The position numbers were made by a program, and so were the translations under genes. 64,000 nucleotides of DNA from the NCBI GenBank assembly GCA_963836185.1, contig CAWIIQ010000001.1:480001-544000 (forward strand), in the 5' to 3' direction. The notes beneath the pieces are model-generated. The model was given only the letters and a program-made list of their open reading frames with translations. It ran no database searches and was not told where the DNA came from. Every line of letters starts with the position of its first letter. Position 1 is the stretch's first letter. Below are positions 3 to 43,955 of this stretch, piece by piece. This DNA is from Candidatus Krumholzibacteriia bacterium (GTDB lineage Bacteria > Krumholzibacteriota > Krumholzibacteriia > Krumholzibacteriales > Krumholzibacteriaceae).

Positions 3-2204
3 AGCAATCCCAGGCTGATCAACGTGATCATCTGGGGAAACACGGCCGACAGAGGAGACAATCCACAGATCTGGAACAATACCAGCTATCCTGTGATATC
101 ATTTTGTCTCATAGAAGGATGTGGAGGCAGCGGAGGAAGCTGGGACGGTACCTTTGGCCTGGACTCAGGCAACAATATTGACGAGGAACCGCTGTTTTTT
201 GATGGAATGAGCGGTGACCTGAGGCTGTTTCCCCACTCGCCGGCAGTCGATGCGGGTGCGACAGATTCAATCCCTGCGAATATCGAAAACGATCTCGGCG
301 GCAATCAGAGAATTGTAAACGATGTCGTTGATATCGGCGCGTACGAGTCGCAGGCCACCTGCCCGCCCGGATCTGTCCTTTACGTCGACGTCGACGCTTC
401 GGGCGAGAATTCAGGCGCTTCCTGGTCCGACGCTTTTACTGAGCTTCAGTTCGCACTCGACTGGGCGTGGATATGCCCTGGCGTGACGCAGATCTGGGTC
501 GCCGATGGATTCTATACGCCCGAAACAGACACCATCGTCACCGACCGGAGCGAGACATTCCAGCTTCTCGACGGGATCGCGGTCTACGGTGGATTCGCGG
601 GGACCGAGACCGACCTCTCCGAGCGGGACTGGGTGGTGAACCCTACCGTTCTGAGCGGCGATATAGGAGCTCCCGGCGACAGCACGGACAACTGTTATCA
701 CGTGGTCACAGCAAGCGGCACGGACGCGACAGCGGTTCTGGACGGCTTCACTATCACCGGGGGGAACGCCAACGCAAGTGTGACGGCCCTGGCGATGGTT
801 CAGAGCGAAACCTTCGAGAATGAAGAAATGGAAAGGGATGTGAAGCCAACCCTCTCTGGCACTTCCGTCTCGGGTTCCAGGATCATCACGGCGTGGATCG
901 ACACGCACGGGGGAGGAGTAAAAAATATCGGCGGCAGCCCCACACTGCGTAACCTCGTGATATCGAGAAATTACGCCTCGGACGGCGGGGGGATGTACAA
1001 CGACAGCGGCAGTCCGACACTCGTCAATGTCCGGTTCCTGAACAACACCGGGATCTGGGGCGGCGCCATTCACAACTGGGATGATGGTAATCCTTCGTTC
1101 GTCAACGTCGTCTTTGCCGAAAACTCGGCCGACTTCGGCGCGGGCCTATACAGTAACTGGAGCGATCCGAGCCTGATCAACGTGACCATGTCAGGCAACA
1201 CTGCCTACAGGGGCGGCGGGCTGTACAACAATTTCGGCAATCCGGTTCTTGTCAACACGATTCTCTGGGGCAATTCTGCTCAGGATGCCGGGGAGGAGAT
1301 ATACAACGCCTCGGCTGTGCCTGTTGTATCTTACTCCCTCATAGAAGGGTCCGGCGGAAGCCTGGCCTGGAATCCGTTGTTCGGCAGCGATTCCGGAAAC
1401 AACATCGACGCTGATCCTGTGTTTGTTGATGAGTTTGCCGGCGACCTGAGTCTGATGCCTGGCTCACCCGCTATCGATGCGGGCGACAACTCTTCGGTTC
1501 CATCAGGTGTTACCACGGATCTCGACAGCAATCCCAGGATCACGGGCGTAACAGTCGACATGGGGGCATACGAGTACCAGTCGGCGCTGGCCGGGGCGTT
1601 CCCTTCGCCGATTGTGTTCGAGGACCCGCCGATGAACGAGACGACCTGCGATACGATCTACTATACAAACGACGGTGGGGTCACATGCACGATCGAGGGA
1701 ATATACGGTTGTTCGACGGCACCTTTCAGTATTGACACTTCGATGACAGTTCATGCGCTCGCCCCGGGAGGTACTACCGCGGTCGTGGTATGCGTTCATC
1801 CGACTACTGCCGAGCCGGACTCTACCCAGCTTGTGATTGTCTCTGATGCGGTTAACAGCCCTACAGTCGTCGATGTCCTGCTCGACCTGGATCCGACTTC
1901 AGGCGAACAGGAAATAGTTCCGCAGCCGTTTCGAATCGTCTCCGTATCGCCGAATCCGTTCAATCCCTCGACTACTCTCTATTTCACACTTCCAGAGAAG
2001 ATGCGGGTCAAGGCTTCAGTATATTCGGTCACCGGTGCGAGGATCCGTGTGCTCTCAAACGGGAAACGTTTCAGTCCAGGATTGAACCGGCTGACATGGG
2101 ACGGCCGTACAGACAGGGGCTTTACAGCCGCTTCCGGTGTGTATTTTATACGGCTGGAGACTAAGTCCGGAACAGATGTGAAGCGTGCCGTGCTGTTGAG
2201 ATAG
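3..2204 (+). CDS. Secreted beta-helix / choice-of-anchor-Q-like surface protein with FlgD-Ig (T9SS-like) C-terminal domain; 5' partial
   Basis: Frame is open to the window edge (SNPRLINVIIWG). Contains GGG-x-YN/N-x-A beta-helix repeats, two 'SPAxDAG...R...VDxGAYE' modules, and the C-terminal PNPFNP...WDG...SGVYF...VLLR* domain. Confidence 0.85.
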   Translation, partial: SNPRLINVIIWGNTADRGDNPQIWNNTSYPVISFCLIEGCGGSGGSWDGTFGLDSGNNIDEEPLFFDGMSGDLRLFPHSPAVDAGATDSIPANIENDLGGNQRIVNDVVDIGAYESQATCPPGSVLYVDVDASGENSGASWSDAFTELQFALDWAWICPGVTQIWVADGFYTPETDTIVTDRSETFQLLDGIAVYGGFAGTETDLSERDWVVNPTVLSGDIGAPGDSTDNCYHVVTASGTDATAVLDGFTITGGNANASVTALAMVQSETFENEEMERDVKPTLSGTSVSGSRIITAWIDTHGGGVKNIGGSPTLRNLVISRNYASDGGGMYNDSGSPTLVNVRFLNNTGIWGGAIHNWDDGNPSFVNVVFAENSADFGAGLYSNWSDPSLINVTMSGNTAYRGGGLYNNFGNPVLVNTILWGNSAQDAGEEIYNASAVPVVSYSLIEGSGGSLAWNPLFGSDSGNNIDADPVFVDEFAGDLSLMPGSPAIDAGDNSSVPSGVTTDLDSNPRITGVTVDMGAYEYQSALAGAFPSPIVFEDPPMNETTCDTIYYTNDGGVTCTIEGIYGCSTAPFSIDTSMTVHALAPGGTTAVVVCVHPTTAEPDSTQLVIVSDAVNSPTVVDVLLDLDPTSGEQEIVPQPFRIVSVSPNPFNPSTTLYFTLPEKMRVKASVYSVTGARIRVLSNGKRFSPGLNRLTWDGRTDRGFTAASGVYFIRLETKSGTDVKRAVLLR

Positions 2205-2208
2205 AGTG

Positions 2209-2226
2209 ATGGTGCTTCTGAGGTAA
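2209..2226 (+). repeat. Degenerate echo of the upstream gene's 3' end (reads MVLLR*)
   Basis: atg gtg ctt ctg agg taa follows 4 nt after the gene end gcc gtg ctg ttg aga tag. Confidence 0.75.
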
Positions 2227-2244
2227 ATAGGGCATAATAGGCAC

Positions 2245-3385
2245 ATGTTTGCCTATCAGAAGACTAACCGGTATTTCGCACAGATCTCCGACGGGCTGGA
2301 GACCGTGGGCGTAAACGAACTTACATCCCTCGGAGCGACAGACGTCAAGCCGTCGTTCCGGGGGATCTACTTTTCCGCCAGCCCCGCCCTGTTGTACCGG
2401 GTCAACTATATGACACGGCTCGCAACGCGGGTGCTCGCGCCGCTGATCACATTCGACTGCCACAGCGACAAGTATCTCTACAAGACTGCAAATTCGATCG
2501 CCTGGAACGAGCTCTTCTCAGTGAGGCAGACCTTCGCCATAGACGCGAATGTCAGCGACAGCAATATCACGCACTCTCAGTACGCCGCGCAGAAGCTCAA
2601 GGACGCGATCGTAGACCAGTTCCGCGACGCGTGCGGGGAGCGGCCCAGCGTCAAGACGAGGGACCCCGATATCTGGCTGAACCTCTTTATCCGAAACAAC
2701 AAGGCGACGATCAGCATCGACACTTCGGGAGGTTCGCTGCACAGGCGCGGCTACCGGGTCGCCTCGGTCGAGGCGCCGATGCAGGAGACGGTCGCGGCTG
2801 CGATCATCAGGTACACAGGCTGGGATGGAGAGAAGCCTCTCTACGATCCGATGTGCGGGTCTGGGACGCTTCTCTGCGAGGCGGCTATGCATTACTGCCG
2901 GATACCGGCGGGGTATTTCCGAAGCGAGTTCGGGTTCATGAGACTTCCCGACTATAAGAAGGCGCTCTGGAAGAAGGTCAGGGAGGACTGTGACGCGCGG
3001 ATCAGGCCGCTGCCGCAGGGGCTGGTATCGGGGAGCGATATGTCGCGCGCAGATGCACATGCCGCGAGGCAGAACTGCGGCGAGCTGCCCGGAGGAGAGA
3101 ACATCTCCATCGGCATCAAGCCGTTCCAGGAGATCGAGTCGCTCGATGACACAATCATCGTCTGCAATCCGCCGTACGGTGTGCGGATGAAGGACAGGGG
3201 GGACCCGGGAAGGCTCCTCGGCGAGTTCAGCGAGTTTCTGATCGAGCGGTGCCGGGGAAGCCGTTGCCTACATATACTTCGGTAAAGAGAAGCAGATGGA
3301 TACGGTCAAGCTGCGCGCCGCCTGGAAGAAGCCGATGAAGAGCGGCGGGCTCGACGGATTCCTCGGGAAGTACAAGATCCGCTGA
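2245..3385 (+). CDS. rlmL: THUMP-domain class I SAM-dependent RNA methyltransferase (RlmL/YpsC-like); one frameshift near 3260
   Basis: Motifs SLHRRGYR, APMQET, DPMCGSGT and NPPYG. The C-terminus continues in another frame (VAYIYFG...KSGGLDGFLGKYKIR*) to TGA at 3385. Confidence 0.8.
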
Positions 3386-3447
3386 AACGGAGACTCCTTA
3401 AAAACCTGGGTAGATACCACTATATTAAAAAGATTGATTATTGCCTC

Positions 3448-3476
3448 TTGTATTATGGGCATATGTGCATTATAAT
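3448..3476 (+). promoter_or_regulatory. Sigma70-type promoter with an imperfect palindrome (candidate operator) upstream of the DUF134/Hdr cluster
   Basis: TTGTAT-17 nt-TATAAT; ATGGGCATATGTGCAT (3455-3470) lies between the two boxes. Confidence 0.55.
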
Positions 3477-3505
3477 GTCCGGAGTGATTTGACAGGGAGA
3501 TCCGG

Positions 3506-3968
3506 ATGCCGCGCCCGAAGAAGAACAAGATGGTCAGCAGCCCCCCTCTTTACAGCGGGTTCAAGCCTGTTGGGATACGGCGGGACATGCTCCAGGACAT
3601 CAACCTCGAGATCGATGAGTACGAGGCCATAAGGCTAAGTGATTACGAGGGTTTGGACCATGCAGACGCCGCTGCCGAGATGGAGATCTCAAGGTCGACA
3701 TTCTCGAGATTGATCGAAAAAGCGCGGAACAAGGTGGCCATCTTTCTCATCGAGGGCAGGATGCTCCAGATCGAAGGGGGCAAGATCCACTTCAGGGACA
3801 ATGTCCTGAAATGCCAGGGTTGTGGGCATATATTCAATATCGATATCGGTACCCGCTTCTCGAAATGTCCCGAATGCGGGTCCAGATCAGCTGTTTAACC
3901 TCGCCGGCAGGTTCGGCCACGGCCGCTGCTGCGCGGACGAAGAGAAGAAGGTCGAGCATGGCGAATAA
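3506..3968 (+). CDS. DUF134 family DNA-binding protein with C-terminal Zn ribbon; frameshift near 3885
   Basis: MPRPKK...EYEAIRLSDYEGL..AAAEMEISRSTFSR; CxxC...CxxC; the end continues in another frame as LFNLAGRFGHGRCC...*. Confidence 0.85.
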
Positions 3969-4134
3969 GGAGAGGCTCGGAAGGAACAAGGGCGGCGGAT
4001 TCGGCCCGGGCGGAAATTGCGTATGCGCCGGGTGCGGGGAGAAGGTTCCGCATCAGAAGGGCGTCAAGTGTACGACACTGAAGTGCCCGAAGTGCGGGAA
4101 GCCGATGGTCAGGGAGGAACTTCTCGGACGCTGA
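3958..4134 (+). CDS. Small Cys-rich Zn-ribbon protein (58 aa)
   Basis: MANKE...GPGGNCVCAGCGEKVPHQKGVKCTTLKCPKCG; overlaps the DUF134 stop region. Confidence 0.75.
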   Translation: MANKERLGRNKGGGFGPGGNCVCAGCGEKVPHQKGVKCTTLKCPKCGKPMVREELLGR

Positions 4135-4229
4135 TCCGGACATCATGTGAACTGGTAACAGAAGAGATTATTAATAAGGTAATCAGGTAATCGAAAGCTT
4201 CATTTTCTTTTTTTTGAAAGGTGGGTCCC

Positions 4230-4655
4230 GTGGAGAACAAGAAGATGACTATCGCGCTTTTCTCGGGAAGCATAGACAAGCTGACCGGAGCGTCCATTAT
4301 CCTTGGTGGCGCCGCCGCTGATGACATGGATGTAGAGGTATTCGTGCTGATGCAGGGCGCGAGGGCGTTCATGAAAGATGTCGCCGGCGATCCGGCAAAG
4401 CTGAACATGGCCGAGAACCCCGAGCTGAAGGAGGAGTTCCTCGCTTCCCTCGACAGGCTCAAGGTCACGCCCTGGATGGATTTCTTCAAGGAAGCGAAAG
4501 AGCTTGCCAACGTCAAGGTCTATGTCTGCGGACTCGCCGGCAAGATCTGGGGCGGAGAAGAGCTGAGCGATTTTGTCGATCTCGTCGATGATATCGTCGG
4601 TATAGGGGAATGCATCACTTCGATGCAGGAAGCCGATGTCCATCTGTTCATCTAG
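4230..4655 (+). CDS. DsrE/DsrF/DrsH-like (DsrE2-type) sulfur-carrier protein
   Basis: IALFSGSIDKL...GAAAxDMDVEVF...G, conserved YVC cysteine, C-terminal HLFI. GTG start follows an AAAGGT RBS; adjacent to tusA. Confidence 0.75.
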   Translation: MENKKMTIALFSGSIDKLTGASIILGGAAADDMDVEVFVLMQGARAFMKDVAGDPAKLNMAENPELKEEFLASLDRLKVTPWMDFFKEAKELANVKVYVCGLAGKIWGGEELSDFVDLVDDIVGIGECITSMQEADVHLFI

Positions 4656-4673
4656 CTTACAGGAGGAACTGAA

Positions 4674-12361: not shown

Positions 12362-15225
12362 ATGGAGTCACATGCCTCAGCGCGTTTGCGCATTCTGTAT
12401 CTCTGTATGTCTATCATCGCGACAATCATTTCTTGATGGGTATTGCTGTTCCGGCTTCGGCAGATTTCACGCTGACGATCTACGAGCAGACGGGCAGCAT
12501 CAACACCTACACATTCATCGCAGGACGATCATCAGTGTCTTTACGACGATATGGCAGGGTCTGCCCGGGCCCTCATCTCTCGGGATACATCGGGTACGAT
12601 TTCGGAACGGGCGGGTGCGAGTATTACGATATCTTCTTCTGCGACTCGGAGGGAGACGGCTCTGGATATCGGGCCGGGTAGATCCGCTGCCGTTCGACAT
12701 CTTCATTAAGCTCGAGTGCTGGGACATCAGCTGCCCTGACGGGGAACTTGTCAGCGTCTCCGACCTGGATCAGCGCGGGAAATAACATCGATGCCGTCGA
12801 CGCTCGAGATCGATGGAGAGATGTTTTACGGCTCAGTCCGTTGTCGGAGGAAGTCTACGGCCTCTGCGATGAGCCGTTGGAGCTGAAGAACTCGAACTTC
12901 GCTGATCGAGCGCGCTCGGGCCCCCCGACGCTGAGCATAACGAAGATGGGTTGCGGATCGACGGTGATCACGCTCGAGTATGGGTTCAGAACCTGGTATC
13001 GGCCATGTGAAATCGTAATTGACTATCCTCACTCGGGAACGACGTACTACATCGGCAGGCAGCACTACGATAGACGTAGCGCAGAACACGTGTGAGCAGC
13101 TCAGGTTCGACTGGAGCTTTACAAGGGCGATATCGCTTCTGTGTCAGATCGCCGATATCACCGGGAAGGTGGTACGAGTGGTATGAAGTGAGCGACTGCG
13201 GAGGCGGGTCCGGCTGGGATTATCGTATCAAGGCGACGTGCCTGGCGAATCCGGCCTGCTTCGACTTCAGCGACTATTTTATCGATGCTTGACGGCGCCA
13301 GCGGCTGCGAGATCGTGGTCAACTATCCTCACTCGGAGACGACGTTCTATATCGGCGGGCAGCACACGATCGATATAACACCGGACGGCTGTAACGGTGC
13401 GGTGAGCCTGGAGCTGTACAGGGGCATCACGCGTCTCTGCCATATCGCGGATATCGCGGGGACGTCGTACGACTGGTACGGGGTGAGCGACTGCGGAAGC
13501 GGACCGGGAGCGGACTATCGTATCAAGGCGACGTGCCTGTCGGATCCGGGCTGCTTCGACTTCAGCGAGTATTTCACTATGGCCGAAGGCGCTGGAGGCT
13601 GCGAGGTAGTCGTTAATTATCCGGACTCGAGCGCGACGTTCCTTGTCGGCGGGCAATACATGATCGACGTGATGCCGAACACATGTGACGGCCCGGTACG
13701 CCTGGAACTTTATAAGAGTGACCTGCTTCTTTGCCGGATCGCCGATATGAGCGGCAGGTGGTACAACTGGGACGGGGTGAGCGACTGCGGAAGCGGCCCG
13801 GGAGCGGACTATCGTATCAGGGCGACCTGCCTGTCGGATCCGGGCTGCTACGATTTCAGCGATTATTTTACCATTACAGTGCAGGATACCTCCGATACCT
13901 CCATGGAGCACGATCCCCTCGCCGCTATCGGCGATTCCTTCTTCGCCTGGGTCGGGAACGGCATAGGCTGGGTCACCGCGGAGGATGGCTACATCTTCGG
14001 AGATGTCCCCTACTGGTTTGACGCTCTGATCTCGCGAAAATCCTTCGATCCCGCGAACGGGCCCGTGATGATATTCAGGGTGTTCAATTCGATAGGAGCG
14101 TCAAACTTCATGGGCGGCTTCACATCCGTGCTGCCGCCGACCAACGACTTTCATTACAATAACATCGAGATAGGCGTCTATCTCCACTCTACGGGAACCA
14201 TCCGGCCGGCCTGGGATGTCAACAATGCCGGGTACTGGTCGACGACTCTAGCTGCCGGGTTCTATGACATAAAGATCGAGCTCGGTGATTCGGAGGGCAC
14301 GGTCATGCTGGCGATCGACGATGTTGCCGGCTGGTCCTCGCCCCTTTCAGATTTCTCGGCCCCGGTCTGGTCGTCGGTCGAACACAGAACGACAGGAGGG
14401 CCGTATCATATACAGATAAATCCATATAACGAAGGGAGCAGGGTCTACGACGTATGGGCCTCGGGGACCGGATCGGCGCCGCCGCCCCCGCCTCCGCCGG
14501 AAGCGGCTCCGCACATCATATTCGTCGAGGATGTCGGTAATGACGAGGGGCGCCAGGTGAGGATGAAGTGGGAGGCGTCAGCCCTGGACGGGCCCGGTAG
14601 TCCGGAGCCTGTCACAGGTTACGCGCTGTGGCGCAGGATCGATACGCTGCCTGCATGGATCGATGTCGCGGCCGCGGCCGTTCCCGGCCCCGTACCGATG
14701 TATCCTCCCGGCGACTGGGATTATCTCGGCACCGTTCCCGCGTGCTGCGAGGAGACGTACGCGACGATCCTTCCGACACTTGCGGATTCGAGCGCTTCGA
14801 GCGGCGTCTTCTGGTCGGTCTTCTTCGTGAGGGCGCTCACTGAGACGCCGGAGATATATTTCGACTCAGCACCCGACAGCGGATACTCGGTATGTGACAT
14901 CATTCCGCCGGATCCCGGGGAAGATCCGGACCCGCAGCCGGCAGAGCATGACGATTATCTCGGCCGAAATTATCCCAACCCGTTCAATCCTGTCACCGAG
15001 ATCAGGTTCGGGCTGAAAGAGCATGGGCATGTCCTTATCAGGATCTACGACACTGGCGGGAGACTCGTCAGGACACTCGTTAACGGTGAGATGCCTGCCG
15101 GCGACCATGCCGAGGAGTGGAACGGTACGGATGACTTCGGAAGGATGGCGGCAAGCGGCATCTACTTCTGCCGCCTCGAGGCAAGAGAGCTGTCTTGCAG
15201 TATCAAGATGGTGCTCCTGCGATAG
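12362..15225 (+). CDS. Large secreted protein with three Cys-rich ~98-aa repeats, an FN3-like module and a FlgD-Ig C-terminal domain; several frameshifts in 12430-13285
   Basis: RBS GGAGGGG plus ATG at 12362; signal peptide ...VPASA; fragments join into ORF 13285..15225, which ends NYPNPFNP...SGIYF...KMVLLR*. Confidence 0.7.
13006..13875 (+). repeat. Three tandem intragenic repeats (about 294-300 nt, 6 Cys each)
   Basis: Units start at 13006, 13306 and 13600: CEIVVNYP...LELY.G...LC.IAD...VSDCG.G...DYRI.ATCL..P.C.DFS.YF. Confidence 0.9.
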
Positions 15226-30941: not shown

Positions 30942-30951
30942 GGGTCGTCTG

Positions 30952-32370
30952 TCAGGCTTGCTTGAAATCCTCCTTGCGCAGGCCGTAACGCTTCATCTTG
31001 TCGAACAGGCCTCTCGGGTGTATGCCAGCCATCTTCGCCGCCTCTCCCACTCGCCCATGACTCGCTTTCAGAACTCTCTCGAAGTATGTGCGTTCGAGGT
31101 TCTCCATGACGAGCCGCTTGAGTTCTGGCAGCGGCCTGTCAAGCCATTCGTCCTCGAAGTTCTGTATCAGGCTTTCGAGTGACGATTCCGAAGCCTGCCC
31201 GGCCGCGATGACCTGAGGCAGGTCGGCAGGGACGATCTCGTTCCCGTGACATAGAATCACGGCCCTCTCGAGTACATTGATCAGTTCCCTCACATTTCCA
31301 GGCCATCCGTAACTACTCAGCGCATTAAGGACCTCTTTGGAGATGCCCGTGATGTCTTTTTTCATCCTTACGCTGAGAATGTCGATGTAGTGGGCCGCCA
31401 GGGCAGGGATATCCTCTTTTCTGTTCCTCAATGGCGGCACGGTAAGCGTGATTACGCTGAGCCTGTAGTAGAGATCCTTGCGGAACAGCCCCGTCCTGAT
31501 CTCATTTTCGATGTCACGGTTGGTTGCCGCTATGACTCTGGTGTCTACCCACATCGATTTTTCACTGCCCACCGGGCGTACCTCAAAATCCTGGAGAACG
31601 CGCAGCATCTTTGCCTGGAGGTGGATAGGAAGTTCCCCGATCTCATCGAGGAAGATCGTTCCCCCGTGAGCCATTTCGAACGCTCCGCGTCTCGAGCGCA
31701 CCGCCCCGGTGAAGGCTCCTTCCTCGTGTCCGAACAGTTCGCTTTCAAGCAGCTGCTCCGGGAGGGAGGTGCAGTTTACCGCGACAAACGGTCCGGCCGA
31801 ACGGGGCCCGTGTGAGTGGATGAACCTGGCGAGATGCTCCTTTCCTACGCCAGTTTCTCCCAGGGCCAGTATCGGGGCGCTGCTCGGGACGATCTTCAAG
31901 ACCAGGTCCATGAAGATCTGCATCTGGGGTGAGTTGGAAACGAATTCCGCGATCCTGGGATAAGTCGTCTGGTACTTGCCGGAAAGGGGTTTTTCTGTAA
32001 GCTGACGGCGCGATTCGATCGTTGTCTCTATAGCCTCGAGCATGGTCTTCAGCGGCAGACTCGAGTACAGGACCACATCGGCGCCCTGCGCGACCAGGTT
32101 TGCGTTCTCTTCCTGGGATCTGCTGTCATGGAGAATGATCGTCGTGGGATTTTCGGGCAGATCGTTCAGCATCGCAATCGATGATTCTATCGGATTCGGC
32201 ATCAGCGAGGAGCTGATTATCACTATATCGCCATTGGTACGTATCGCTTTCTGGAACGGATTCTTCAGGTGCCAGAAGCTTTCAACGGTCAAGTCATGCC
32301 CCGACAGGTGCTTCCGTATCTTCTTGTCGAGCTCTTCGGTCTTGACGGCGATTACTACTCTCAGCAGCAT
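30952..32370 (-). CDS. Sigma54-dependent transcriptional activator with degenerate receiver-like N-domain
   Basis: GETGVGKE, ESELFGHEEGAFTGA, FLDEIGE, WPGNVREL, C-terminal Fis-type HTH. Confidence 0.93.
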   Translation of the reverse strand: MLLRVVIAVKTEELDKKIRKHLSGHDLTVESFWHLKNPFQKAIRTNGDIVIISSSLMPNPIESSIAMLNDLPENPTTIILHDSRSQEENANLVAQGADVVLYSSLPLKTMLEAIETTIESRRQLTEKPLSGKYQTTYPRIAEFVSNSPQMQIFMDLVLKIVPSSAPILALGETGVGKEHLARFIHSHGPRSAGPFVAVNCTSLPEQLLESELFGHEEGAFTGAVRSRRGAFEMAHGGTIFLDEIGELPIHLQAKMLRVLQDFEVRPVGSEKSMWVDTRVIAATNRDIENEIRTGLFRKDLYYRLSVITLTVPPLRNRKEDIPALAAHYIDILSVRMKKDITGISKEVLNALSSYGWPGNVRELINVLERAVILCHGNEIVPADLPQVIAAGQASESSLESLIQNFEDEWLDRPLPELKRLVMENLERTYFERVLKASHGRVGEAAKMAGIHPRGLFDKMKRYGLRKEDFKQA

Positions 32371-32486
32371 TTCAGCTCCTTTCCATGAAATAATCAGTAT
32401 ATATATACCTGTTATCCAGGCCGGCCAATTACATCGTAATATCCTGTATTATACGTCCTTATATGCAATAAATCGTATTCATAAGC

Positions 32487-32505
32487 CATATCAGATTCTG
32501 ATATG
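32487..32505. promoter_or_regulatory. Perfect 9-bp palindrome, candidate upstream activator (enhancer) site
   Basis: CATATCAGA-T-TCTGATATG, about 150 nt upstream of the sigma54 promoter in an AT-rich intergenic region. Confidence 0.5.
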
Positions 32506-32656
32506 AAGATTAAGGAATGAATAACGGTAACATTATACATGAAAATAGAATTAAAAGGTATAAATATACAGATAATTGAGAATCACCCGGGCGGTTGATT
32601 TTGCATAACATCTTATCAATCAATAAGATAACGAGATGATACGTTTTCTTGGAAAA

Positions 32657-32671
32657 TGGCTTGTAATATGC
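32657..32671 (+). promoter_or_regulatory. Sigma54 (-24/-12) promoter
   Basis: TGGC-TTGTAATAT-GC gives GG-N10-GC spacing; divergent from a sigma54 activator gene. Confidence 0.65.
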
Positions 32672-32765
32672 GTATACCCCGAATCGATCGTACAATCCGC
32701 AAGATGGACCCGCGTTTCATATGCGGCGAGGCATTCAGAACGGAAAGGAACAGAGATAGACGGTT

Positions 32766-32984
32766 ATGGATAGCTTATCAAGAAGGCCTGATGATTCCGA
32801 TGATCTCGATTTCGGGGATGACTGGTCTGATGATGATTTCATCGATCCAGACGACATTCCACTGCTTCCCACCAAGGAACAGCGCGAACTGGACGAATAT
32901 CTCGAGAGAAAAGAGAAAAAGCGCAAGCTTAAGAAAAGGCGCAAGGAGAAACATGACAGACATCGCGATGGCTGGGATGACTGA
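32766..32984 (+). CDS. Small bipolar protein (Asp-rich N-half, Lys/Arg-rich C-half), 72 aa
   Basis: First ORF after the sigma54 promoter; 14 Asp in the first 30 residues, then RKEKKRKLKKRRKEK. RBS is weak. Confidence 0.55.
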   Translation: MDSLSRRPDDSDDLDFGDDWSDDDFIDPDDIPLLPTKEQRELDEYLERKEKKRKLKKRRKEKHDRHRDGWDD

Positions 32985-33051
32985 AGCAACGGATGTCCGG
33001 GATTCAGTCTCTGAGCCTCTTTCGTACATCGTGAAAGGAAATATCGATCCG

Positions 33052-33450
33052 ATGAAAAACGATGAAACCTGGTTCGGGCAGGGCCGGGAGGCCCCGGCCG
33101 ATGTCTGGGGCCTCGCGTCCAGCATAGACATCTACGGATGTGATCCGGATGCTATCAGGGACGCTGACCTGATAAGGAGATTTACCGCCGAGTTGTGTGA
33201 TCTCATCGAGATGAAGCGGTTCGGCGAGACACAGGTAGTCCACTTTGGTGAGGATGAGAAGGTCGCGGGGTACTCGATGGTCCAGCTGATAGAGACGTCG
33301 CTGATCTCAGCTCATTTCGCCAACCAGTCGAATGCCGTATATCTCGACGTGTTCAGCTGTAAATCCTACGACCCCGATACGGTGCGGGAGTTCGCGCGTA
33401 AATATTTCGGCGGGCAGCATACCATCATGAATGTCAACTACAGGCGCTAG
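33052..33450 (+). CDS. speD: S-adenosylmethionine decarboxylase-like pyruvoyl proenzyme
   Basis: IDIYGCD...L...IEMKR...HFG...GYSMVQLIETSLISAHF...YLDVFSCK. ATG at 33052 follows an AAAGGA RBS. Confidence 0.8.
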   Translation: MKNDETWFGQGREAPADVWGLASSIDIYGCDPDAIRDADLIRRFTAELCDLIEMKRFGETQVVHFGEDEKVAGYSMVQLIETSLISAHFANQSNAVYLDVFSCKSYDPDTVREFARKYFGGQHTIMNVNYRR

Positions 33451-33453
33451 GAA

Positions 33454-34419
33454 ATGAATATACGCACGAGCTGCGATCTCGAAGAAGCCGGCAGGGTCTG
33501 GCGTGAACTCTGGCCTGCCGAGGATGTCTTCGATTGCTGGGAAGTACGTGAATGCTTCCAGAAGAGCTTCGGCCGCCCGATTCATTTTATTATTGCAGAG
33601 TCAAACGGCAGACCCGCCGGTTTCATCGGACTCAGCTGGATAGATGAGGAGGGTTACTACGGACAGTTCCCCGGTGAGACATGGAGGGGCAGGACATGGT
33701 TCGAGCAGAACCGGATCCCAGCCAGCTCCGACATCGTGAGAATGATGCTCTGGGACGCCGCGCCCGGCGACACGAAGCTTCGCTATCTCGTCGCCGATTC
33801 CGGCGGGCTGCTTCCAGGAAGCACAGTCGATGAGACCGGATATATTTTCCGTCCGCCGCAGTACGGTTACGATTTCGAAAGATACTGGAATGCGTATTCC
33901 GGCAAATCGCGGAAGAAGATCGGTCGGGAGATCGAAGCTCTGGGAGACCTCACATACTCGTATGACAGAGTTGATTCAGGGGACATCGAGTGGATGTTCG
34001 ATACGAACAAGGCGAATTTCGGGGCCGATTCATACTTCGAAGATCCACGGTTTCTCGATGGTTTTGAGTCACTGATCTCGCTTTTATCAGAAAAAGGCAT
34101 GCTGCGTGTCTCAAAGGTAAGTCTGAAGGGCAGGCGAGCCGCCGTTGACGTAGGAGCAGTATGCGGGGGACGGTATACAGTGCTGGCGGGGGCCACCGAC
34201 CCGGAACTGCGAGGGGTCGCGAAAGCGATCAACCTTTTTCATATTAAATGGGGATGCCGGTTGCGGGTCGATCAGATCGACTTTCTTTGCGGGGATTTTG
34301 GATGGAAGAGACGCTTTCACCTCGAGCCGCGTCCCTTATTCCTGTCGACAAAGGCCGTTTCCGGGGCAGCAGTCGTGACTTCGGAAAAGAGAAAGGTCGA
34401 AAGTGTCATCGCATGTTGA
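33454..34419 (+). CDS. GNAT-superfamily (CelD/BcsL-, Fem-like) acyltransferase
   Basis: YSGKSRKKIGREI helix; C-terminal GVAKAINL.H..W......IDFLCGDFGWKRRFHL. Confidence 0.7.
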   Translation: MNIRTSCDLEEAGRVWRELWPAEDVFDCWEVRECFQKSFGRPIHFIIAESNGRPAGFIGLSWIDEEGYYGQFPGETWRGRTWFEQNRIPASSDIVRMMLWDAAPGDTKLRYLVADSGGLLPGSTVDETGYIFRPPQYGYDFERYWNAYSGKSRKKIGREIEALGDLTYSYDRVDSGDIEWMFDTNKANFGADSYFEDPRFLDGFESLISLLSEKGMLRVSKVSLKGRRAAVDVGAVCGGRYTVLAGATDPELRGVAKAINLFHIKWGCRLRVDQIDFLCGDFGWKRRFHLEPRPLFLSTKAVSGAAVVTSEKRKVESVIAC

Positions 34420-35674
34420 TCCGGTGATCGTAGTCGGGACTACAGCTGACTATGTCGAGAGGATCGGCGAGAGGATGCCGGAGAGAACCATATTTCTTTC
34501 CGACCTCGATATATATGCGGATTCGTTACGTTCCATGCCCGCGAGAGTATACCAGGTCTTCTCATCGCTCCGCGATCCGGACGAGTCATTCTCCAGACTG
34601 CGGAGATTCATGGATGATAAGGGGCTCAGCCCCGGAGGCGTAGCGTGCTTTGACTGCGAATCTCTTCTTCTCGCCGCCGATATCGCGCGGAGATTATCTC
34701 TGCCTTTTCCCACATGGGAAGCCGTGATGAACACTCGCGACAAGCTCATCTCGAGGAGGCTGTGGCACGAGAATGGGATCAAGTGCCCCAGGGCAATAAC
34801 GGCGCGTGACGAGGATGACGTGAGAGCTTTCATAGAGATAATGGACCGTGCCGTTGTCCTGAAACCGGCCACGCTCAGCGGAAGCGAGCTGACTTTCGTA
34901 TGTGAAAGGCCCGAAGACGCAGTCGAAGCGTTTCGTGTGATAAGAGACGGTCTTCGCCGGAGAGTGACCGACAAGACACTCAACAGGGACCGCATAGTCG
35001 ACGAGAACATTGTCTTATGTGAGGAATATATAGATGGGCACGAATACAGCTGCGATTTTATCAGTGACAAACATGAGACAAAGATCATAAGGACGGCCCG
35101 AAAGTATCTGATGGAAGAGGGACCCGCCGGAACAGCGCAGGCGTATGAAGTGCCGGGGATGTCGCGTGAAAAAGCGGACGCGATCGATCTCGCCGGACGT
35201 GTATCAAGAGCCGCCAGGGTGCTGGGGCTGGAGCGCTGCCAGGGGATGGCTGATTTCATCATGAGGGCTGGAGCGCCGTATTTTCTGGAGATAACACCGA
35301 GGCCCGGGGGCGATTGCCTGCCGCAGATAATAGAGCATAGCTGCGGCATGGATATGCTCGGGACACATATCGATTTCTCGGCAGGAAGAAAACCGCGGAT
35401 AGTTCCTGAGAAAGACTGGAAACATACCGTTGGACTCAGGATCCACGCGAAGAGGCGGGGGCGCCTGTCGGCGATCCGTCTCTGGGCCGACCGAGTCCGG
35501 CAGGAGATCCTGGAGACAGGATGGTACAGGGAACCGGGAGACAGGATCGGATTGCCGCCTGAAGACTACAGGACATGGGTCATAGGCCATGTGATCTTCA
35601 GGCCGCTTCAAGGAGTGGCCGTATCCGATCAGATCGAGGATCTGATGGAAGCGGTCGAGATCAGGATAGAGTAA
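34403..35674 (+). CDS. ATP-grasp ligase (L-amino acid ligase-like)
   Basis: RDKL..R, VVLKP..LSGS, LCEEYIDGHEYSCD, FLEITPRPGGD. Confidence 0.85.
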   Translation: MSSHVDPVIVVGTTADYVERIGERMPERTIFLSDLDIYADSLRSMPARVYQVFSSLRDPDESFSRLRRFMDDKGLSPGGVACFDCESLLLAADIARRLSLPFPTWEAVMNTRDKLISRRLWHENGIKCPRAITARDEDDVRAFIEIMDRAVVLKPATLSGSELTFVCERPEDAVEAFRVIRDGLRRRVTDKTLNRDRIVDENIVLCEEYIDGHEYSCDFISDKHETKIIRTARKYLMEEGPAGTAQAYEVPGMSREKADAIDLAGRVSRAARVLGLERCQGMADFIMRAGAPYFLEITPRPGGDCLPQIIEHSCGMDMLGTHIDFSAGRKPRIVPEKDWKHTVGLRIHAKRRGRLSAIRLWADRVRQEILETGWYREPGDRIGLPPEDYRTWVIGHVIFRPLQGVAVSDQIEDLMEAVEIRIE

Positions 35675-35686
35675 GGGTATTCAGCG

Positions 35687-37015
35687 ATGGCGGAAGAAAA
35701 GAATATGCTCGAACGGGCGCGGCTGATCTTGAGGCAGGATGTCCCGCCGATGGATCAGGGGCGTATGGAAAGATTCGTGGGGTCGTGCGTTTCACAGGCG
35801 GATCTCTTTCTGGATCTGCGGGAAAAACACGGAGCGCCTCTTTACATCGTCGATCGCGGCGGACTGGTAAACGAGTTCGAAAGAATGCGGGAAGCGTTCA
35901 AAGTACTTCCGGGCGAGGTCGAAATATTCTATGCCCTGAAAAGCAACAGTATGCCCGAGATCTCGGATATCCTCGCCGGCGCCGGCGCCGGCCTCGATGT
36001 TTCGAGCGGAAAGGAACTGAGACTCGCGATAGAAGCGGGAGCGCGGTCGATAATATTCAGCGGACCGGGCAAGACGGATGACGAACTGGCCCTGGTGATC
36101 GATCATGCGGATCGTGTCACGCTGATGATAGACAGTTTCGGTGAGTTCGACCGGCTTGACCGGCTCACGCGGGAAAAAAGGAAAACGGTCAATGCAGGCG
36201 TACGGCTCACCGTGAATCCGACCGGTCTCTGGCGCAAGTTCGGGATCCCGCTCAAGGAGCTGGCCCGGTTTTTTGCCGGGGTTGACAGAAGCCCGTTCAT
36301 CCAGTTCGAGGGATTGCAGTTTCATACGAGCTGGAACCTTACCCCTGAAGCGCATATATCATTTATCGGTGAACTGGGCGCGGCTCTGAAATCCCTGCCC
36401 GATATGATCTCGAGGGAGATCAGCTTCATCGATCTTGGAGGGGGGTTCTGGCCCGAGCACGGCGAGTGGCTTCGCGCCGGCGGCACAGAACCCGGCAGGT
36501 TGCGTAACCTCCTGATGCCGGAAAGGCCCGACACCTCGTCCAGATACATCCTGGAGAGCGCGGATATCAGTGAGTTTGCCGTAGGGATCGCGTCAGCGCT
36601 GGATAAGTCGCTTCCATCGTCGATTAACTGCCGATTCTTCATCGAACCGGGGCGCTGGCTCTGCCATCAGAACATGCACATCCTTCTGACAGTCGTAGAT
36701 GTGAAGGCATCCGACATCGTGATAACAGATGCGGGCACTAATGCCATAGGGTGGGAAAGGTTCGAACACGACTATTTCCCCGTGATCAACCTGTCCGACC
36801 CGGATATCCGCGAGCATCCATGTCATGTCTTCGGATCGCTGTGCACTCCCCATGACGTATGGGGTTATTCGTATTTCGGCAGGGGGATCAGCAGGGGCGA
36901 TGTGCTTCTTATACCCTCGCAGGGAGCCTATACGTACAGCCTCAGGCAGGAATTCATCAAGCCTCTCCCCGCTAAAGTCGTCGTGCAGGGCCCGCTCGAT
37001 CTTCGCTGGTTGTGA
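35687..37015 (+). CDS. PLP-dependent group IV (diaminopimelate/ornithine-type) decarboxylase
   Basis: FYALKSN (PLP Lys), DVSSG.EL, FSGPGK, DLGGG, EPGR, GSLCTPHD, GAYT. Confidence 0.88.
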   Translation: MAEEKNMLERARLILRQDVPPMDQGRMERFVGSCVSQADLFLDLREKHGAPLYIVDRGGLVNEFERMREAFKVLPGEVEIFYALKSNSMPEISDILAGAGAGLDVSSGKELRLAIEAGARSIIFSGPGKTDDELALVIDHADRVTLMIDSFGEFDRLDRLTREKRKTVNAGVRLTVNPTGLWRKFGIPLKELARFFAGVDRSPFIQFEGLQFHTSWNLTPEAHISFIGELGAALKSLPDMISREISFIDLGGGFWPEHGEWLRAGGTEPGRLRNLLMPERPDTSSRYILESADISEFAVGIASALDKSLPSSINCRFFIEPGRWLCHQNMHILLTVVDVKASDIVITDAGTNAIGWERFEHDYFPVINLSDPDIREHPCHVFGSLCTPHDVWGYSYFGRGISRGDVLLIPSQGAYTYSLRQEFIKPLPAKVVVQGPLDLRWL

Positions 37016-37078
37016 TAAATAGCGGTGCAGGACCCGCTCAGTGACGACCGGTATTTCGTTCAGGGCCCGCACGACTTT
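36981..37078 (+). repeat. Gene 3'-end segment plus two degenerate downstream echoes
   Basis: Gene: tcgtgcagggcccgctcgatctt (36981). Copies: gtgcaggacccgctc (37025, 14/15) and tcgttcagggcccgcacgacttt (37056, 19/23). Confidence 0.8.
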
Positions 37079-37160
37079 GACACGACAACTTTGAATATAC
37101 AGGCGCCCCTCAGTGTATGTAGAATGAATCCAATCTCGTACACACACAAAGGAGGGCGCC

Positions 37161-38033: not shown

Positions 38034-38065
38034 GCGGCATTCCGCTGAAAAGAGACATCTATGAT

Positions 38066-38679: not shown

Positions 38680-38707
38680 GAATCACCCTGCCGCCCCACC
38701 GTATCTA

Positions 38708-40076
38708 TTATTTTACGGTCCTTTCCGAGATGTCCACGCGGCCGCTGTCATAGTGCCCGCGCAGAATCGTCGGTACCCCGTCATCGCCGACGACCACTTC
38801 GAGCCTGAAGAAGTCGAGCTCATCGAAACAGAACATCGTTTCTGAGATCGCGTACATCCTGAACTTCGGGCGCTCCTCGCGCTGGTAGTACAGCTGACCG
38901 TCCTCGAACAGGATATTGCGGGGCCCGTACTTCCCGGCATAGCTCTTCATCGTCTTTTCGTCGATCTTGAAAGGTTCGCGGATCGCTTCGTAGCGTTCGA
39001 GCGCCCAGCCGAGACTTTCCTTCAGTTCGGGGATCTCCGCTTCTTCGTATAGCTTCTTGAGAGCTTCGTACTTCGCTACTTCGAGCGCGTCCTGCTGCGG
39101 AACCTGGATGTGAGGCTCGATTCCGGTGCCTTCCCAGTTGGTCATCGTTATCGGATTGACCGCGCGTCCGAAGGGAACACCGAGCTTGACGCCGAGGTCG
39201 GGGAATACCACAGTCGTGGTCGGGTGCGCCCCTCCGCCGGTCGTCTCGCCGATTATCGTGGCCCGTTCGAGGTTCTTCATGTTGTAGGTGAATTCCTCCG
39301 CGCCGGAGAAGGTCCTCCTGGCGGTGAGAATGTAGAGCGGTTTGTCGGCGAGGCTGGGCCCCTCGATATGCGACTGGGTCCAGAACTGCTTTATCGTGTC
39401 GGCCTCGCGGATGTAGAAGTTGTTGAGATGGGTAGCCTCCTCGAAGAAGTAGCTCGAGATGAGCTGGACCATCGTCGGGCTGCCGCCGCCGTTCTCGCGC
39501 AGGTCGATGATCACCGCGTAGCAGTTGGCGAGGAAGTTCATCGCCGCTACCGCCGTCGCGCCGCCGTATTTGGCGTTCGGCGAAGCCGTTGAACTTGAGG
39601 TACCCGATGTTGTTTTCGAGCCGCTCGACCCTTTCGAATCCGAAATTCGAATATGCCGCACGCGCGATGCGCATCTCCCTGTCATCGTCGGTCGGCTCAT
39701 CCTGCCTGGCGATGCGGATATCTTCCTCGGTGGCGGGGAAGACCCACAGGTGCCGGTCATGGCTGATCTCCTCCATGTCCTCGGTCAATCTCCTGGTGAA
39801 GACGTCGAGATCGTCGAGGTCATCGTATTTGCCCTTCTTGAGGTTTTTGGACAGGGTCTTGCCCATCTTTTCGGCCGTCTCGGCGAAGATGTACGTCTTG
39901 TCGAGGTGGAACCGGACGCTGTCGATGATCGCGGCCTTCGTGTCCTTGTCGAGTTCCGCGGCATCGGCGCCGGAGGGAAGGAACACGAGGAATGTCGCGG
40001 CGAGCAGCACTGCCGCCAGCACGATTATTATGAGCGCCATTTTTAAAGTATTGTGATCACCGGTCTCTGTTTTCAT
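38708..40076 (-). CDS. S41 family (IRBP-like) peptidase, secreted; frameshift near 39580
   Basis: Signal peptide; DRHL, NIGYLKFNGF / IIDLRENGGG, TFSGAEEF, GETTGGGAHP, WEGTGIEP. Confidence 0.88.
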
Positions 40077-40552
40077 CTCCTGTTCCTTTCTCCGATACGT
40101 TCACTGAGACTTCTTTCGTCGAAGGCGTCTTCGATGCCGGCGAGTCCGCTGAGAAAGTCGACTCCCGTCTCATCGACGACACCGGTAGTGACATCGCTGA
40201 CATCTTTCCACAGCGGCTCGAGCGCCGTTACCGTCTCCCTGCCTTTTGCTGTAAGGGAGATCAGGCGCCGCCTTCCGTCATCCGCGTCCCTTTCGTAAGT
40301 AATAAGGCCCTTGCTGTGCATCCCCGCGACCATCTGGCTGACAGCCGGGCGGGAGACCCCGAGTTTATCCGCCATCTCCGAGGCGGTGATCCCGTCCCTC
40401 TGAGAGAGCATCCACGCGGCGAGAAACCAGGAGTCGTTAAAATCGATCCCCCGGTCGCGGTAGACCTTCGACGCCTCGACCTTGAGGCGCTCGGCAAGCC
40501 TCTTCATCCGGCTCGCCAGTGCGAAGATCCCGAGTTCTCTCAGTGTGTCCAT
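40073..40552 (-). CDS. MarR family transcriptional regulator (paralogous to 26060..26563)
   Basis: ALASRMKRLAERL...ASEMADKLGVSRPAVSQ...DGRRRLISLT. Confidence 0.9.
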   Translation of the reverse strand: MDTLRELGIFALASRMKRLAERLKVEASKVYRDRGIDFNDSWFLAAWMLSQRDGITASEMADKLGVSRPAVSQMVAGMHSKGLITYERDADDGRRRLISLTAKGRETVTALEPLWKDVSDVTTGVVDETGVDFLSGLAGIEDAFDERSLSERIGERNRR

Positions 40553-40577
40553 CGAAATGACCTCTTCCGGCTATTTA

Positions 40578-40591
40578 GTTAAGCCCTTAAC
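40578..40591. promoter_or_regulatory. Candidate MarR operator
   Basis: GTTAAG-CC-CTTAAC palindrome 25 nt upstream of the MarR start codon. Confidence 0.45.
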
Positions 40592-40665
40592 CATCTCTGT
40601 ATTAATATACGCCTGATGGGTCTCCGTGTTCCAGAAAAAATCATTAGATGATGGTATATATGCAG

Positions 40666-40782
40666 TTACATGAGCCTGGAGGTGCCGTTGTCAGATCGTT
40701 CTGAAGGTACGGTGGTCACATCAGTTGATAGTGTGGCGATCACATCAGTTGATGGTGCGGTGGTCACATCAGCCTGAAGGTA
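40666..40782 (-). repeat. Four degenerate 24-25-nt tandem echoes of the lipoprotein gene's 3' end
   Basis: Units start (plus strand) at 40666, 40691, 40716 and 40740; gene copy at 40764. Each unit ends in a stop codon on the minus strand. Confidence 0.85.
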
Positions 40783-41303
40783 TAGGCGATCTCCCTGAAC
40801 TGGTCGTGGAACTGGTTGAACTGTGCGCCCCTGGTGACCCCGCGGAAGATATAGATAGCCGATCCCCTCTTCTGCATGTACTCGAGTCTCGCCTCGTAGC
40901 GCGGCTCGGTATCGATGACGTACAGGATGTACATCGTCTTCTGCCCGCCAACCTTGATCTCGCCGCTGTCCTCGTACTGGTAGTAGGCTTTTCCCTCGGG
41001 GAGCCTCTTCTTGTAGCTGTCGAAGAACTTCTCCAGGTCCGGGTCGCTCTGCATCCGCATTATAATCACCTCGAACGCGGTGCCCCTGATCTCGGGGTCC
41101 GCGCCCTCCTCAAGCGGCGCGTGAGCCGCGACGACCCTGCCGCCGCCCGGATCTTCCTCCACGGTCCAGTCTGCCGGGAAGGTGATGTGGAAGCCGTTCA
41201 CCTTGTCGCAGTAGACACCGGGATCGCCGGGGCACCTCGAACAGGAGAGCAGCGCCGCCGATGCAGCGAGAATACAGGTAAGAACGATGCAAGAGAGTTT
41301 CAT
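40764..41303 (-). CDS. Putative lipoprotein, PsbP-like fold
   Basis: Lipobox LLSC; GFHITFPADW; C-terminal F..IA.TFRL. Confidence 0.7.
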   Translation of the reverse strand: MKLSCIVLTCILAASAALLSCSRCPGDPGVYCDKVNGFHITFPADWTVEEDPGGGRVVAAHAPLEEGADPEIRGTAFEVIIMRMQSDPDLEKFFDSYKKRLPEGKAYYQYEDSGEIKVGGQKTMYILYVIDTEPRYEARLEYMQKRGSAIYIFRGVTRGAQFNQFHDQFREIAYTFRLM

Positions 41304-41471
41304 ACTCCGGACCTCCTGCGTGGATGATTACGTCATGGATATATCCTCATGTAGCCCGCCGGTCCGGTCAGTGTCAATCATCATTATCCGGCCCCGGTCT
41401 GTAATTGATTTACTCCTTTCCCTGTGATATAATCCCGGCGGCTCATCCCACATTAAAAAGGAGGGTGTCTC

Positions 41472-43894
41472 ATGGGCAACCGCATTATCCTTGCGGCGGC
41501 GCTTGGCGTTTTCGTCATTGCATCGGCAAGCGTATCCGTGCGTGCCGACTGGCCGGAGAATGGTCTATTGGTCTGCAATGAACTCAACACACAATCGAAT
41601 CCCCTTGCCATACCTGACGGTATGGGAGGTGTGATCGTGGTCTGGAGAGATTATCAGACAGGTGATGATATTTATGCCCAGCGGTTCAACGTGAGTGGAA
41701 CCCCGCTCTGGGACGCGCGTGGCGTCCCCTTGTGCACGGAAGCATCCAGTCAAACTATAGCCTATGCACAGATATGTTCAGATGGCTGTGGTGGTGTGAT
41801 CGTAGCGTGGGGGGACGGCAGGAATGGCGACTGGGATATCTACGCTCAGAGGATCGGCCACGACGGGACCGCACGCTGGACCGTCAACGGGGTTCAGATA
41901 TGCACCCTGGTTTCCAATCAACAGTATCCTCAGGCAGTACCTGATGGAGCGGGCGGCGCTTTGATCGTCTGGGAGGACTGGCGAAACAGCAATCTGGACG
42001 TCTATGCGCAGCGGATCGATGCCGGCGGGATAGTATGGTGGACCCACAACGGAGTCGCTCTCTGCACCGCGGTCAGTAACCAGACATGGATCAGAGCGGC
42101 ATCGGATGGAAGCGGGGGGATGATCTGCGCATGGATGGACTCACGCGCAGGTAATTACGATGTCTATTCACAGAGGGTCGACGGGAGCGGGAACGTCCAG
42201 TGGACAACCGACGGAATGCCTGTCGCCACTCTCACGACAGTTGACGGGAATCCCTGCATCATTGCCGACGGATCCGGAGGCGCGTTCATAACATGGATGG
42301 ACGGGAGGCCCGGGACGGACGGTATTTACGGGCAGAGGATCGATTCATCCGGTAGTCCGCAATGGACCGTAAACGGGGTATCGGTATGCAGCGCCGCAAG
42401 CAGTCAAGTCTACTCCTATCAGGACCTCGATGGAGAGGGGGGGATGGTCGTAACCTGGCTCGATTACAGAAACGGTATATATGATGTCTATGCCCAGCGC
42501 ATGAACGGTTCAGGAGTTGCTCTCTGGACGGTGGACGGGGTTCTTCTCGAGTCGCGTCCGCAAAACATGTACGACCCCAGGATCGTGTCCGACAAAGATG
42601 GAGGAGCGATCGTGACCTGGACGGAGAATGAAAACATATACGCTCAGAGGGTCGATGGAGCGGGAACGGTCCAGTGGCAGATGGAGGGGCTCCTTGTCTG
42701 CGGCGCCCCGGCCTACCAGGATGATTGCAGGATAGTGACGAACGAAGCCGGCGGAGCATATATCGTATGGCACGACTACCGGTCGGGAGATTACGACGTC
42801 TATGTGAGCAACGTAGAGCCTGATGGATCTCTTTATAGTGCGCCCCCCTCGATATCTTCGGCGAATGATGTGCCGGCCGACCAGGGCGGCTATGTCTATC
42901 TGTCATGGGACGCCAGCCGGGATGAGCGCTTCCGGGGCGATCTTGTGACTCACTATTCCATATGGAGGGCGATCGATCCCGCCGCCGCCCTTCTGGCTGC
43001 CGGCAGCGGAAGGCAGATTCTTGAGGCGGGCGCCGGCAATGCTTCCGTCATCCCCCTGGCTGCCGATATTCCCATCGGCGCTGTAAAGATGGAGATTCTC
43101 GACGGCGCGCCATGGTACTGGGAACTTGTTACCACACAGGAACTCTACTACCAGGACACGTACGGGCTGTCCGTATCGACACTCTGCGATTCCGTAGGCT
43201 TGGAAGAATGCTGGCACTACTTCCAGGTCGTGGCGCAGACTGCCGATCCGATGGTCTACTGGGCCTCGCAGCCGGACAGCGGGTACTCGGTAGACAACCT
43301 GGCCCCCTGCCCGCCCCTGGCGCTTGCCGGCGAGCAGAGTTTCACGCCGGAGGGGCTGGAGCTGACCTGGGCGCCGAACACGGAGCCGGACCTCGACTGC
43401 TACAACGTATACCGCGGCATCGGCCCCTCGTTCGACCCATCGCCCGGCAATCTGCTGGCCGAGGCATGCGACACACTTCTTTTCGACGGCGGCTGGTCGT
43501 GGGACTCGGATTTCTGCTACAAGGTCGCCGCGGTCGACGTACACGGGAACGAGAGCGGTTTCGCTCTGCTGTGCGCAGAGCAGGTCACAGGCGACGACCC
43601 GATGCCGCTGCCGGAGGCGACTTTCCTCGCGCAGAACTATCCCAATCCGTTCAATCCCGCGACGACGATTGCGTTCGGGCTTAAAAGAGTCCGGGTCTGT
43701 GTCACTCCGGATATATGACGCGGCCGGACGACTCGTAACTACTCTTGTCGATGAATCAAGACCCGCAGGCAGATATACCACTGAGTGGAAAGGCAAAAGA
43801 AGCTGATGGATCATCCGCCGCGAGCGGCGTCTACTTCTACAGGCTTATATCGAAGGAGTTCGAGGAGACCAGGAAGATGATCCTGCTGAGGTGA
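41472..43894 (+). CDS. Secreted 8-repeat beta-propeller-like protein with FN3-like modules and FlgD-Ig C-terminal domain; two frameshifts at A-runs (about 43685 and 43797)
   Basis: Eight DGxGGxxxxWxDxR...DIYAQR...W repeats; QNYPNPFNP; reconstructed end SGVYFYRL...RKMILLR* (TGA at 43894). Confidence 0.85.
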
Positions 43895-43955
43895 TAAGTA
43901 AAGATGATCCTGCTGAAGGGATGATTTTGTTGAAGCGATGATCCTGCGCATGTAG
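43874..43955 (+). repeat. Gene end (KMILLR*) followed by three degenerate echoes
   Basis: aagatgatcctgctgaggtga, then aagatgatcctgctgaagg (43901), atgattttgttgaagc (43921) and atgatcctgcgcatgtag (43938). Confidence 0.85.

Follow-up and report, generated by a model that had tools for sequence, protein, structure and literature searches.

Gene-end echoes in a Krumholzibacteriia genome: probable scars of short duplications and of gene turnover

Introduction

Degenerate copies of a gene's last codons just behind its stop codon, here called gene-end echoes, have counterparts in several described systems. Integrative elements such as e14, at icdC, enter the 3' end of a protein gene, and the displaced end is left at attR. 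Microhomology-mediated duplications have been described across bacteria as mostly neutral and as depleted from coding regions (PMC13167724), and their mechanism has been described in yeast (PMC8639346). For strings of orphan 3' ends, homology-facilitated illegitimate recombination was put forward (PMC5361080), the anatomy and rarity of which are treated in PMC3240628, and the turnover of tandem paralogues is known from the Staphylococcus lpl cluster (PMC2568036). The present analysis concerns four echo loci (2209, 37025, 40666 and 43901) in a 64,000-nt stretch of a Candidatus Krumholzibacteriia bacterium genome (G000:C1:480001-544000, 'the window'; positions are window positions unless a contig is given), where a sequence-only reading had proposed an undescribed system acting on gene 3' ends.

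The four echoes are real but heterogeneous and are not one feature. They are quite probably passive scars of two ordinary processes, namely short head-to-tail duplications straddling a stop codon and gene turnover that strands the tail of a displaced paralogue. The copies at 37025, 40666 and 43901 are likely worn-down short duplications, and that at 2209 is likely the leftover tail of a displaced gene. Since these two processes suffice, nothing new is required, and the proposal of an undescribed system was not supported. The gene-end echo as a named feature was not found in literature searches, which mostly did not reach subscription journals.

Results

Presence and kind of the four echoes

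The window lies in a 3.5-Mb genome in 6 contigs (92.5% complete). A simple model based on in-frame hexamers gave 3081 approximate gene calls, the start sites being approximate as well. All four echoes stand at the positions that the sequence-only reading had given. The gene labels FlgD_ig and pyridoxal phosphate (PLP)-dependent decarboxylase were borne out, and the third gene, earlier labelled a lipoprotein, encodes a PsbP-like protein. When the last 36 nt of each gene were matched to the downstream DNA and compared with 2000 dinucleotide shuffles, the view that an echo copies the end of its own gene held for the genes with ends at 37015, 40764 and 43894 (0 of 2000 shuffles each) and failed for that ending at 2204 (11.5% of shuffles, p 0.115). 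The loci differ in kind and no sequence is common to them; a single mechanism for all four is not supported.

Echoes are not enriched at stop codons

The control that separates background from a targeted system is other offsets, not other genes. In a first anchored scan (last 30 nt of a gene against the next 150 nt, 2629 genes), 16 genes scored at least 24, against 9.3 with the downstream DNA of other genes and 18 with a query taken 60-90 nt inside the gene. In a second (24-nt query, 45-nt target, 1484 genes with a free 3' gap, score at least 22), matches were found for 6 of 1484 genes at the stop, for 2-11 at 20 other offsets and for 1.7 in permutations. The second scan thus gave 4.0 per 1000 at stops and 3.8 per 1000 at purely intergenic positions, both above the other-gene permutations (about 1.2 per 1000). 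Echo frequency had been expected to exceed controls; against position-matched controls it did not, and with no peak over them at the stop codon the notion of a recurrent process targeting gene 3' ends was not supported. Controls on the start-codon side gave no echo excess at the start itself, and a junction histogram around 1371 stops showed no peak at the stop.

An unanchored scan for repeats with periods of 12-40 was run at a stricter and a looser threshold. The stricter returned 142 repeats, 20 of them with a non-triplet period; 13 of the 20 were intergenic, 4 straddled a boundary and 3 were coding, despite a coding share of the genome of 83.6%. As expected under selection, coding DNA is depleted of non-triplet duplications. 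With the looser threshold, 4 repeats started in a gene and had their junction near the stop. Two features expected of tandem duplication, depletion from coding DNA and the lack of a special non-coding position, were therefore borne out. Intergenic DNA searched against all called genes matched 3' ends 6 times, 5' ends 19 times and interiors 350 times, mostly at chance level or through uncalled genes, and gave no sign that 3' stubs predominate in G000. Further likely echoes lie outside the window at G000:C2:321277 (minus strand), C1:266777 (plus), C1:1759580 (plus), C1:224232 (plus) and C1:1010293 (minus), with periods of about 21-28 nt, and several of these begin at most 2 nt from the stop. True echoes in the genome number roughly half a dozen to ten, about as a background of local duplication predicts.

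A four-unit array at 40666

Head-to-tail units of similar period, a further feature of tandem duplication, are present at 40666 (24) and 43901 (17). At 40666, the PsbP-like gene (40764..41303, minus strand; ends TFRLM-stop) is followed by four decayed tandem units of 24-25 nt (40666..40763, minus strand), designated u1 (40740-40763), u2 (40716-40739), u3 (40691-40715) and u4 (40666-40690), the last being distal and ending in TAA. A MarR-family regulator gene (40073..40552, minus strand) lies downstream of the array. Tandem Repeats Finder reported 40716-40772 with a period of 24; five aligned units have 76% column identity, and u1 and u2 have a common, frameshifting indel.

Relatives hold a counterpart of the distal unit. 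In G001 the PsbP-like gene is reduced to its last 20 codons, which end in TAA immediately before the same MarR gene, and the end of this remnant aligns with u4 and its flank. The PsbP-like gene of G004 ends in TAA and has, 3 nt after the stop, a decayed match to u4 and flank (15 of 17 columns); those of G005 and G006 use TGA. None of the 14 relative matches inspected ended like u1, u2 or u3. On one X2 contig (depth 2.5), obtained with a likeness setting that often yields joints from other organisms, the gene end is followed by just one u4-like unit, without u1-u3; this contig and the decayed G004 match make up the evidence of relatives on copy number. That the distal unit has a counterpart in relatives and retains the stop codon found there fits stepwise duplication. 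In the simplest history an old duplication under a TAA stop would have been followed by a silent switch to TGA and then by further duplications carrying TGA. The array had been read as a stacked log of former termini: the units are apparently time-ordered, with the oldest outermost, but they are probably not ends of other alleles.

Three tail copies at 43901 and doubled tails elsewhere

At 43901, a FlgD-domain surface-protein gene (41472..43894, plus strand; ends KMILLR-stop) is frameshifted twice: compared with its closest paralogue, it has one extra nucleotide near 43680 and another near 43800. It is followed by three decayed tail copies (43901..43955, plus strand), e1 (43901-43918), e2 (43921-43935) and e3 (43938-43955), at spacings of 27, 17 and 17 nt; Tandem Repeats Finder reported 43903-43947 with a period of 17. 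Copy e1 is one base off the gene end. G000 has 89 intact FlgD-type C-terminal tails, which end in a KMxLLR-stop-like motif, and none of them matches e2 or e3 beyond 9-11 nt. The gene is absent from its slot in G004, and the slot in G005 holds another family member without echoes.

Doubled tails are rare elsewhere. In a tail profile scan (score at least 10 downstream), 2 of the 89 intact tails were followed by a match, the second borderline, against 12 of 2679 other genes; the frameshifted gene ending at 43894 was left out of the 89. With a strict pattern, which misses decayed echoes, doubled tails were found in 4 of 208 genomes of the class: at the 43901 locus, as an exact duplication in G132, with a paralogue-like second tail in G025, and as a chance match in G037. 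Within the order, 2 real cases stood among 1441 single-motif matches in 52 genomes. In GTDB genomes and JGI metagenomes the doubled-tail pattern returned 27 loci, only 3 of them with FlgD-type tails, namely L106 with one echo, L123 with a stack and L108 as a likely chance match, the others lying outside such genes and being mostly ordinary tandem repeats. On L123, an unrelated metagenome contig, a FlgD-type tail is followed by at least four decayed copies, as at 43901.

Such copies resemble microhomology or slippage duplications, and the minisatellites (variable-number tandem repeats, VNTRs) derived from them, in being brief head-to-tail repeats of a single-copy segment that have re-expanded and decayed, and in their depletion from coding DNA (PMC13167724, PMC8639346). 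They differ in that microhomology arms are unreadable at the decayed junctions here, and in that the hint of copy-number variation comes from one contig of a relative and from G004 instead of from same-species strains.

A stranded paralogue tail at 2209

At 2209, the adjacent gene encodes a FlgD-domain surface protein, the 3' part of which occupies 24..2204 (plus strand; begins upstream of the window; ends KRAVLLR-stop). Behind it stands an orphan 23-nt tail (2208..2230, plus strand), consisting of MVLLR-stop and 4 nt of 3' flank, and then a THUMP/RlmL-type methyltransferase gene (2245..3285, plus strand), a conserved gene to the right of the stub. The genome has exactly two copies of the 23-mer, this one and another that forms the end of a paralogue 14.8 kb upstream (G000:C1:467414-467436; 23/23), so that in an orphan-3'-end test the remnant matched the end of that other gene better than the end of the adjacent one. 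The echo differs from the adjacent gene by 4 silent changes in the last 5 codons, which would simply be differences between paralogues. The echoes had been taken for ends of other alleles or paralogues; this is supported for 2209 only, as the terminus of a different paralogue, and synonymous bias is not supported as a mark of other alleles.

In G006, the slot lacks the cluster of large surface-protein genes and contains a 47-bp stub that is 95.7% identical to the same paralogue; from the stub end to the THUMP start there are 19 nt in G006 and 18 nt in G000. The presence of a stub of the same paralogue at a like distance indicates that the 2209 stub is likely the tail of the gene that formerly preceded the THUMP gene. 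The slot is occupied by different FlgD-domain genes in different relatives (another such gene in G004; the contig of G003 ends at the slot), and a search of 5 same-genus genomes found no close orthologue for the gene that ends at 2204. A replacement or insertion with its right-hand joint just inside the tail of the old gene would have left the 23 nt behind, and the 14.8 kb between the two 23-mers could reflect either one-crossover entry or later overwriting of a duplicate gene. Perhaps, as a guess, the stub was kept because it overlaps the THUMP promoter region; a consensus scan found no promoter or terminator consensus at 2100-2300.

The locus resembles Vibrio type VI secretion system (T6SS) effector-immunity arrays and rhs loci in having a displaced 3' end behind a replacement at a variable locus; unlike those orphan ends (PMC5361080), the stub is 23 nt long, the genes encode FlgD-domain surface proteins, there are no immunity genes to favour retention, and conservation is at the 3' end instead of the 5' end. 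As in the Staphylococcus lpl cluster, exchange affects the gene body while the 3' part moves as one with the intergenic DNA and the next gene, but the lpl crossover falls within a conserved central segment, so that whole genes are restored (PMC2568036), whereas the joint here left a non-coding stub. The two 23-nt gene-tail copies, identical and in direct orientation, border a 14.8-kb block (G000:C1:467414-482230) in which the called genes encode giant FlgD-domain surface proteins. A direct gene-end repeat at both borders, a feature of integrative elements such as e14 at icdC, was found at 2209 only; no block is inserted at the other three loci, and no integrase, phage or integrative and conjugative element cargo was recognised among the called genes of the block, on which no integrase profile was run.

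Spaced copies at 37025

The PLP-dependent decarboxylase gene (35687..37015, plus strand) is followed by a 15-nt stretch that copies codons 6-10 before its stop in direct orientation (14/15; 37025..37039, plus strand) and by a second copy of this near-palindromic segment (37058..37075, plus strand), which is predicted to pair with the gene end and reads as direct or inverted because the segment is nearly palindromic. Neither copy includes the stop codon, and being spaced they are less clear as tandem units than those at 40666 and 43901. Both are present in G003 (protein 74% identical), and no recognisable copy was found at the other 7 loci inspected. Position 37091, just 3' of the copies, is a synteny break in G001, G004, G005 and G006. 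The block between carB and an SPFH gene (30942-37090; with GNAT, ATP-grasp and decarboxylase genes) is absent from the slot in G001 and G004, and G003 has at least 33676-37090 of it.

Synonymous and non-synonymous changes

Differences between echo and gene had been described as mainly synonymous. In seven ungapped units of loci 37025, 40666 and 43901, chosen by eye, without u1 and u2 of 40666 (indel) and with shared changes counted repeatedly, 10 of 21 changes were synonymous (0.48) and 11 non-synonymous, a modest bias that falls short of that description. The expected synonymous share is 0.23-0.30 under pure neutral decay and 0.37-0.46 under decay with silent drift in the gene, and the observed share fits duplication with silent drift (p 0.49 at 0.45).

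Discussion

In the reading preferred here, a slippage or microhomology event of 15-27 nt would take in the last codons of a gene. A duplication that straddles the stop would be tolerated because the gene is left intact, while the same event inside a gene would be purged. The spare copy would decay, the gene end would drift silently and the unit would reduplicate, giving an array with the oldest copy outermost, as the polarity at 40666 suggests. Several cases fall in this window because this stretch of the chromosome is richest in FlgD-domain genes and synteny breaks; C1 carries 58 FlgD-type domains, 33 of them in its 200-600 kb section, where the window is situated. As had been proposed, the echoes are scars of recombination or duplication and not function-bearing genes. 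As found, they matter little. Background duplication filtered by selection, with occasional orphan tails, can explain them.

Several observations weigh against this reading. The protein-level scan gave a strong echo in 7 of 2626 genes against 0.8 in permutations (range 0-3, 6 runs), with permutation as its only control; several of these echoes begin at most 2 nt from the stop, which the anchored search favours and which may also be real. A weak preference for stops could go unnoticed because the counts in the junction histogram are small. The synonymous share lies above pure neutral decay (p 0.03 at 0.26), for units that are non-independent and picked by eye. Since G005 and G006 use TGA, allele replacement would also be compatible with the TAA/TGA polarity seen at 40666. 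Finally, the persistence of the 37025 copies in two species at 74% protein identity, with a strong predicted fold, may reflect selection.

It is rather unlikely that repeated allele replacement, with homologous exchange upstream and an illegitimate joint inside the old tail, left behind all four echoes as former gene ends. Such replacement fits 2209 directly and is the route proposed for stacked orphan 3' ends in PMC5361080. A ComEC-family competence gene is present (it was also matched in 10 of 14 control genomes), the second tail in G025 is spelled like another paralogue, and orphan 3' stubs of 15-27 codons, with a stop and no gene body, were found in relatives at L034 (G001:C52), L044 (G006:C47) and L129 (G002:C204), among them the 20 PsbP-like codons of G001. 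At 40666, however, no relative match ends like u1-u3 and the frameshifting indel is common to u1 and u2; at 43901, e2 and e3 have no counterpart among the intact tails; and non-synonymous changes are as numerous as synonymous ones. PMC3240628 puts homology-facilitated illegitimate recombination orders of magnitude below homologous recombination in frequency.

Improbable, too, is that the KMxLLR-stop tail of about 90 FlgD-domain genes is a docking site for the entry and exit of surface-protein gene blocks. The 14.8-kb block would then be one insertion, and stacked tails would be a log of replacements by alleles acquired through competence. If true, this would explain integrase-free block swapping of surface genes in uncultured bacteria with large secreted-protein families.

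That selection keeps the echoes, be it for an RNA structure, for promoter sequence or for back-up stops, is very improbable as a general account. This view draws on the predicted fold of gene end and echo at 36977-37081 (-52.8 kcal/mol in G000, z -4.49; -57 kcal/mol in G003, z -4.22) and on the nearly equal spacing of 2209 stub and THUMP start in G000 and in G006. Pairing between a near-palindrome and its direct copy, however, needs no selection, the two-sequence consensus fold has changes on both sides in only 3 of 27 pairs, the predicted folds at the other three loci are not better than those of shuffles, and the consensus scan at 2100-2300 found nothing; moreover, selection would account for retention and not for origin. 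An Rfam scan of the window gave 0 matches.

A dedicated site-specific system that adds or removes cassettes at gene 3' ends, duplicating its target each time, is highly improbable. The FlgD-domain block between perfect 23-nt repeats resembles an attL/attR pair, but the four loci have no sequence in common, the called genes of the block encode surface proteins (the integrase profile search was not run there), and doubled tails are as rare as described above. As the sequence-only reading had held for the window, no reverse transcriptase explains the echoes: PF00078 was not found in the 92.5% complete genome, which bears on diversity-generating retroelements and retrons, and Ku was not found in it either. 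Assembly artefacts are scarcely credible, for although the assembly has many frameshifts in surface-protein genes and no sequencing run contained even a fifth of the stretch's words, separate assemblies hold the 37025 echoes (G003), the 2209 stub (G006) and the u4 match (G004), one X3 contig extends 17 nt past the 43894 stop (too short to count as a bridge), and the copies are diverged, not identical.

FlgD-domain genes are often frameshifted in G000: besides the gene at 43901, frameshifts lie near C1:479650, C1:338759, C1:528911 and C3:368337, and may be either assembly error or real decay. A 294-bp tandem repeat of 2.9 copies (13022-13868) overlaps the start of the FlgD-type gene ending at 15225. 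A 30-nt perfect palindrome with A- and T-runs lies at 44089-44118 and also at G000:C1:314601-314683 and 272712-272778, and in G001, G002 and G003; it recurs 3' of FlgD-type tails and at synteny breaks within the genus, and may be a mobile or repetitive extragenic palindromic (REP)-like terminator.

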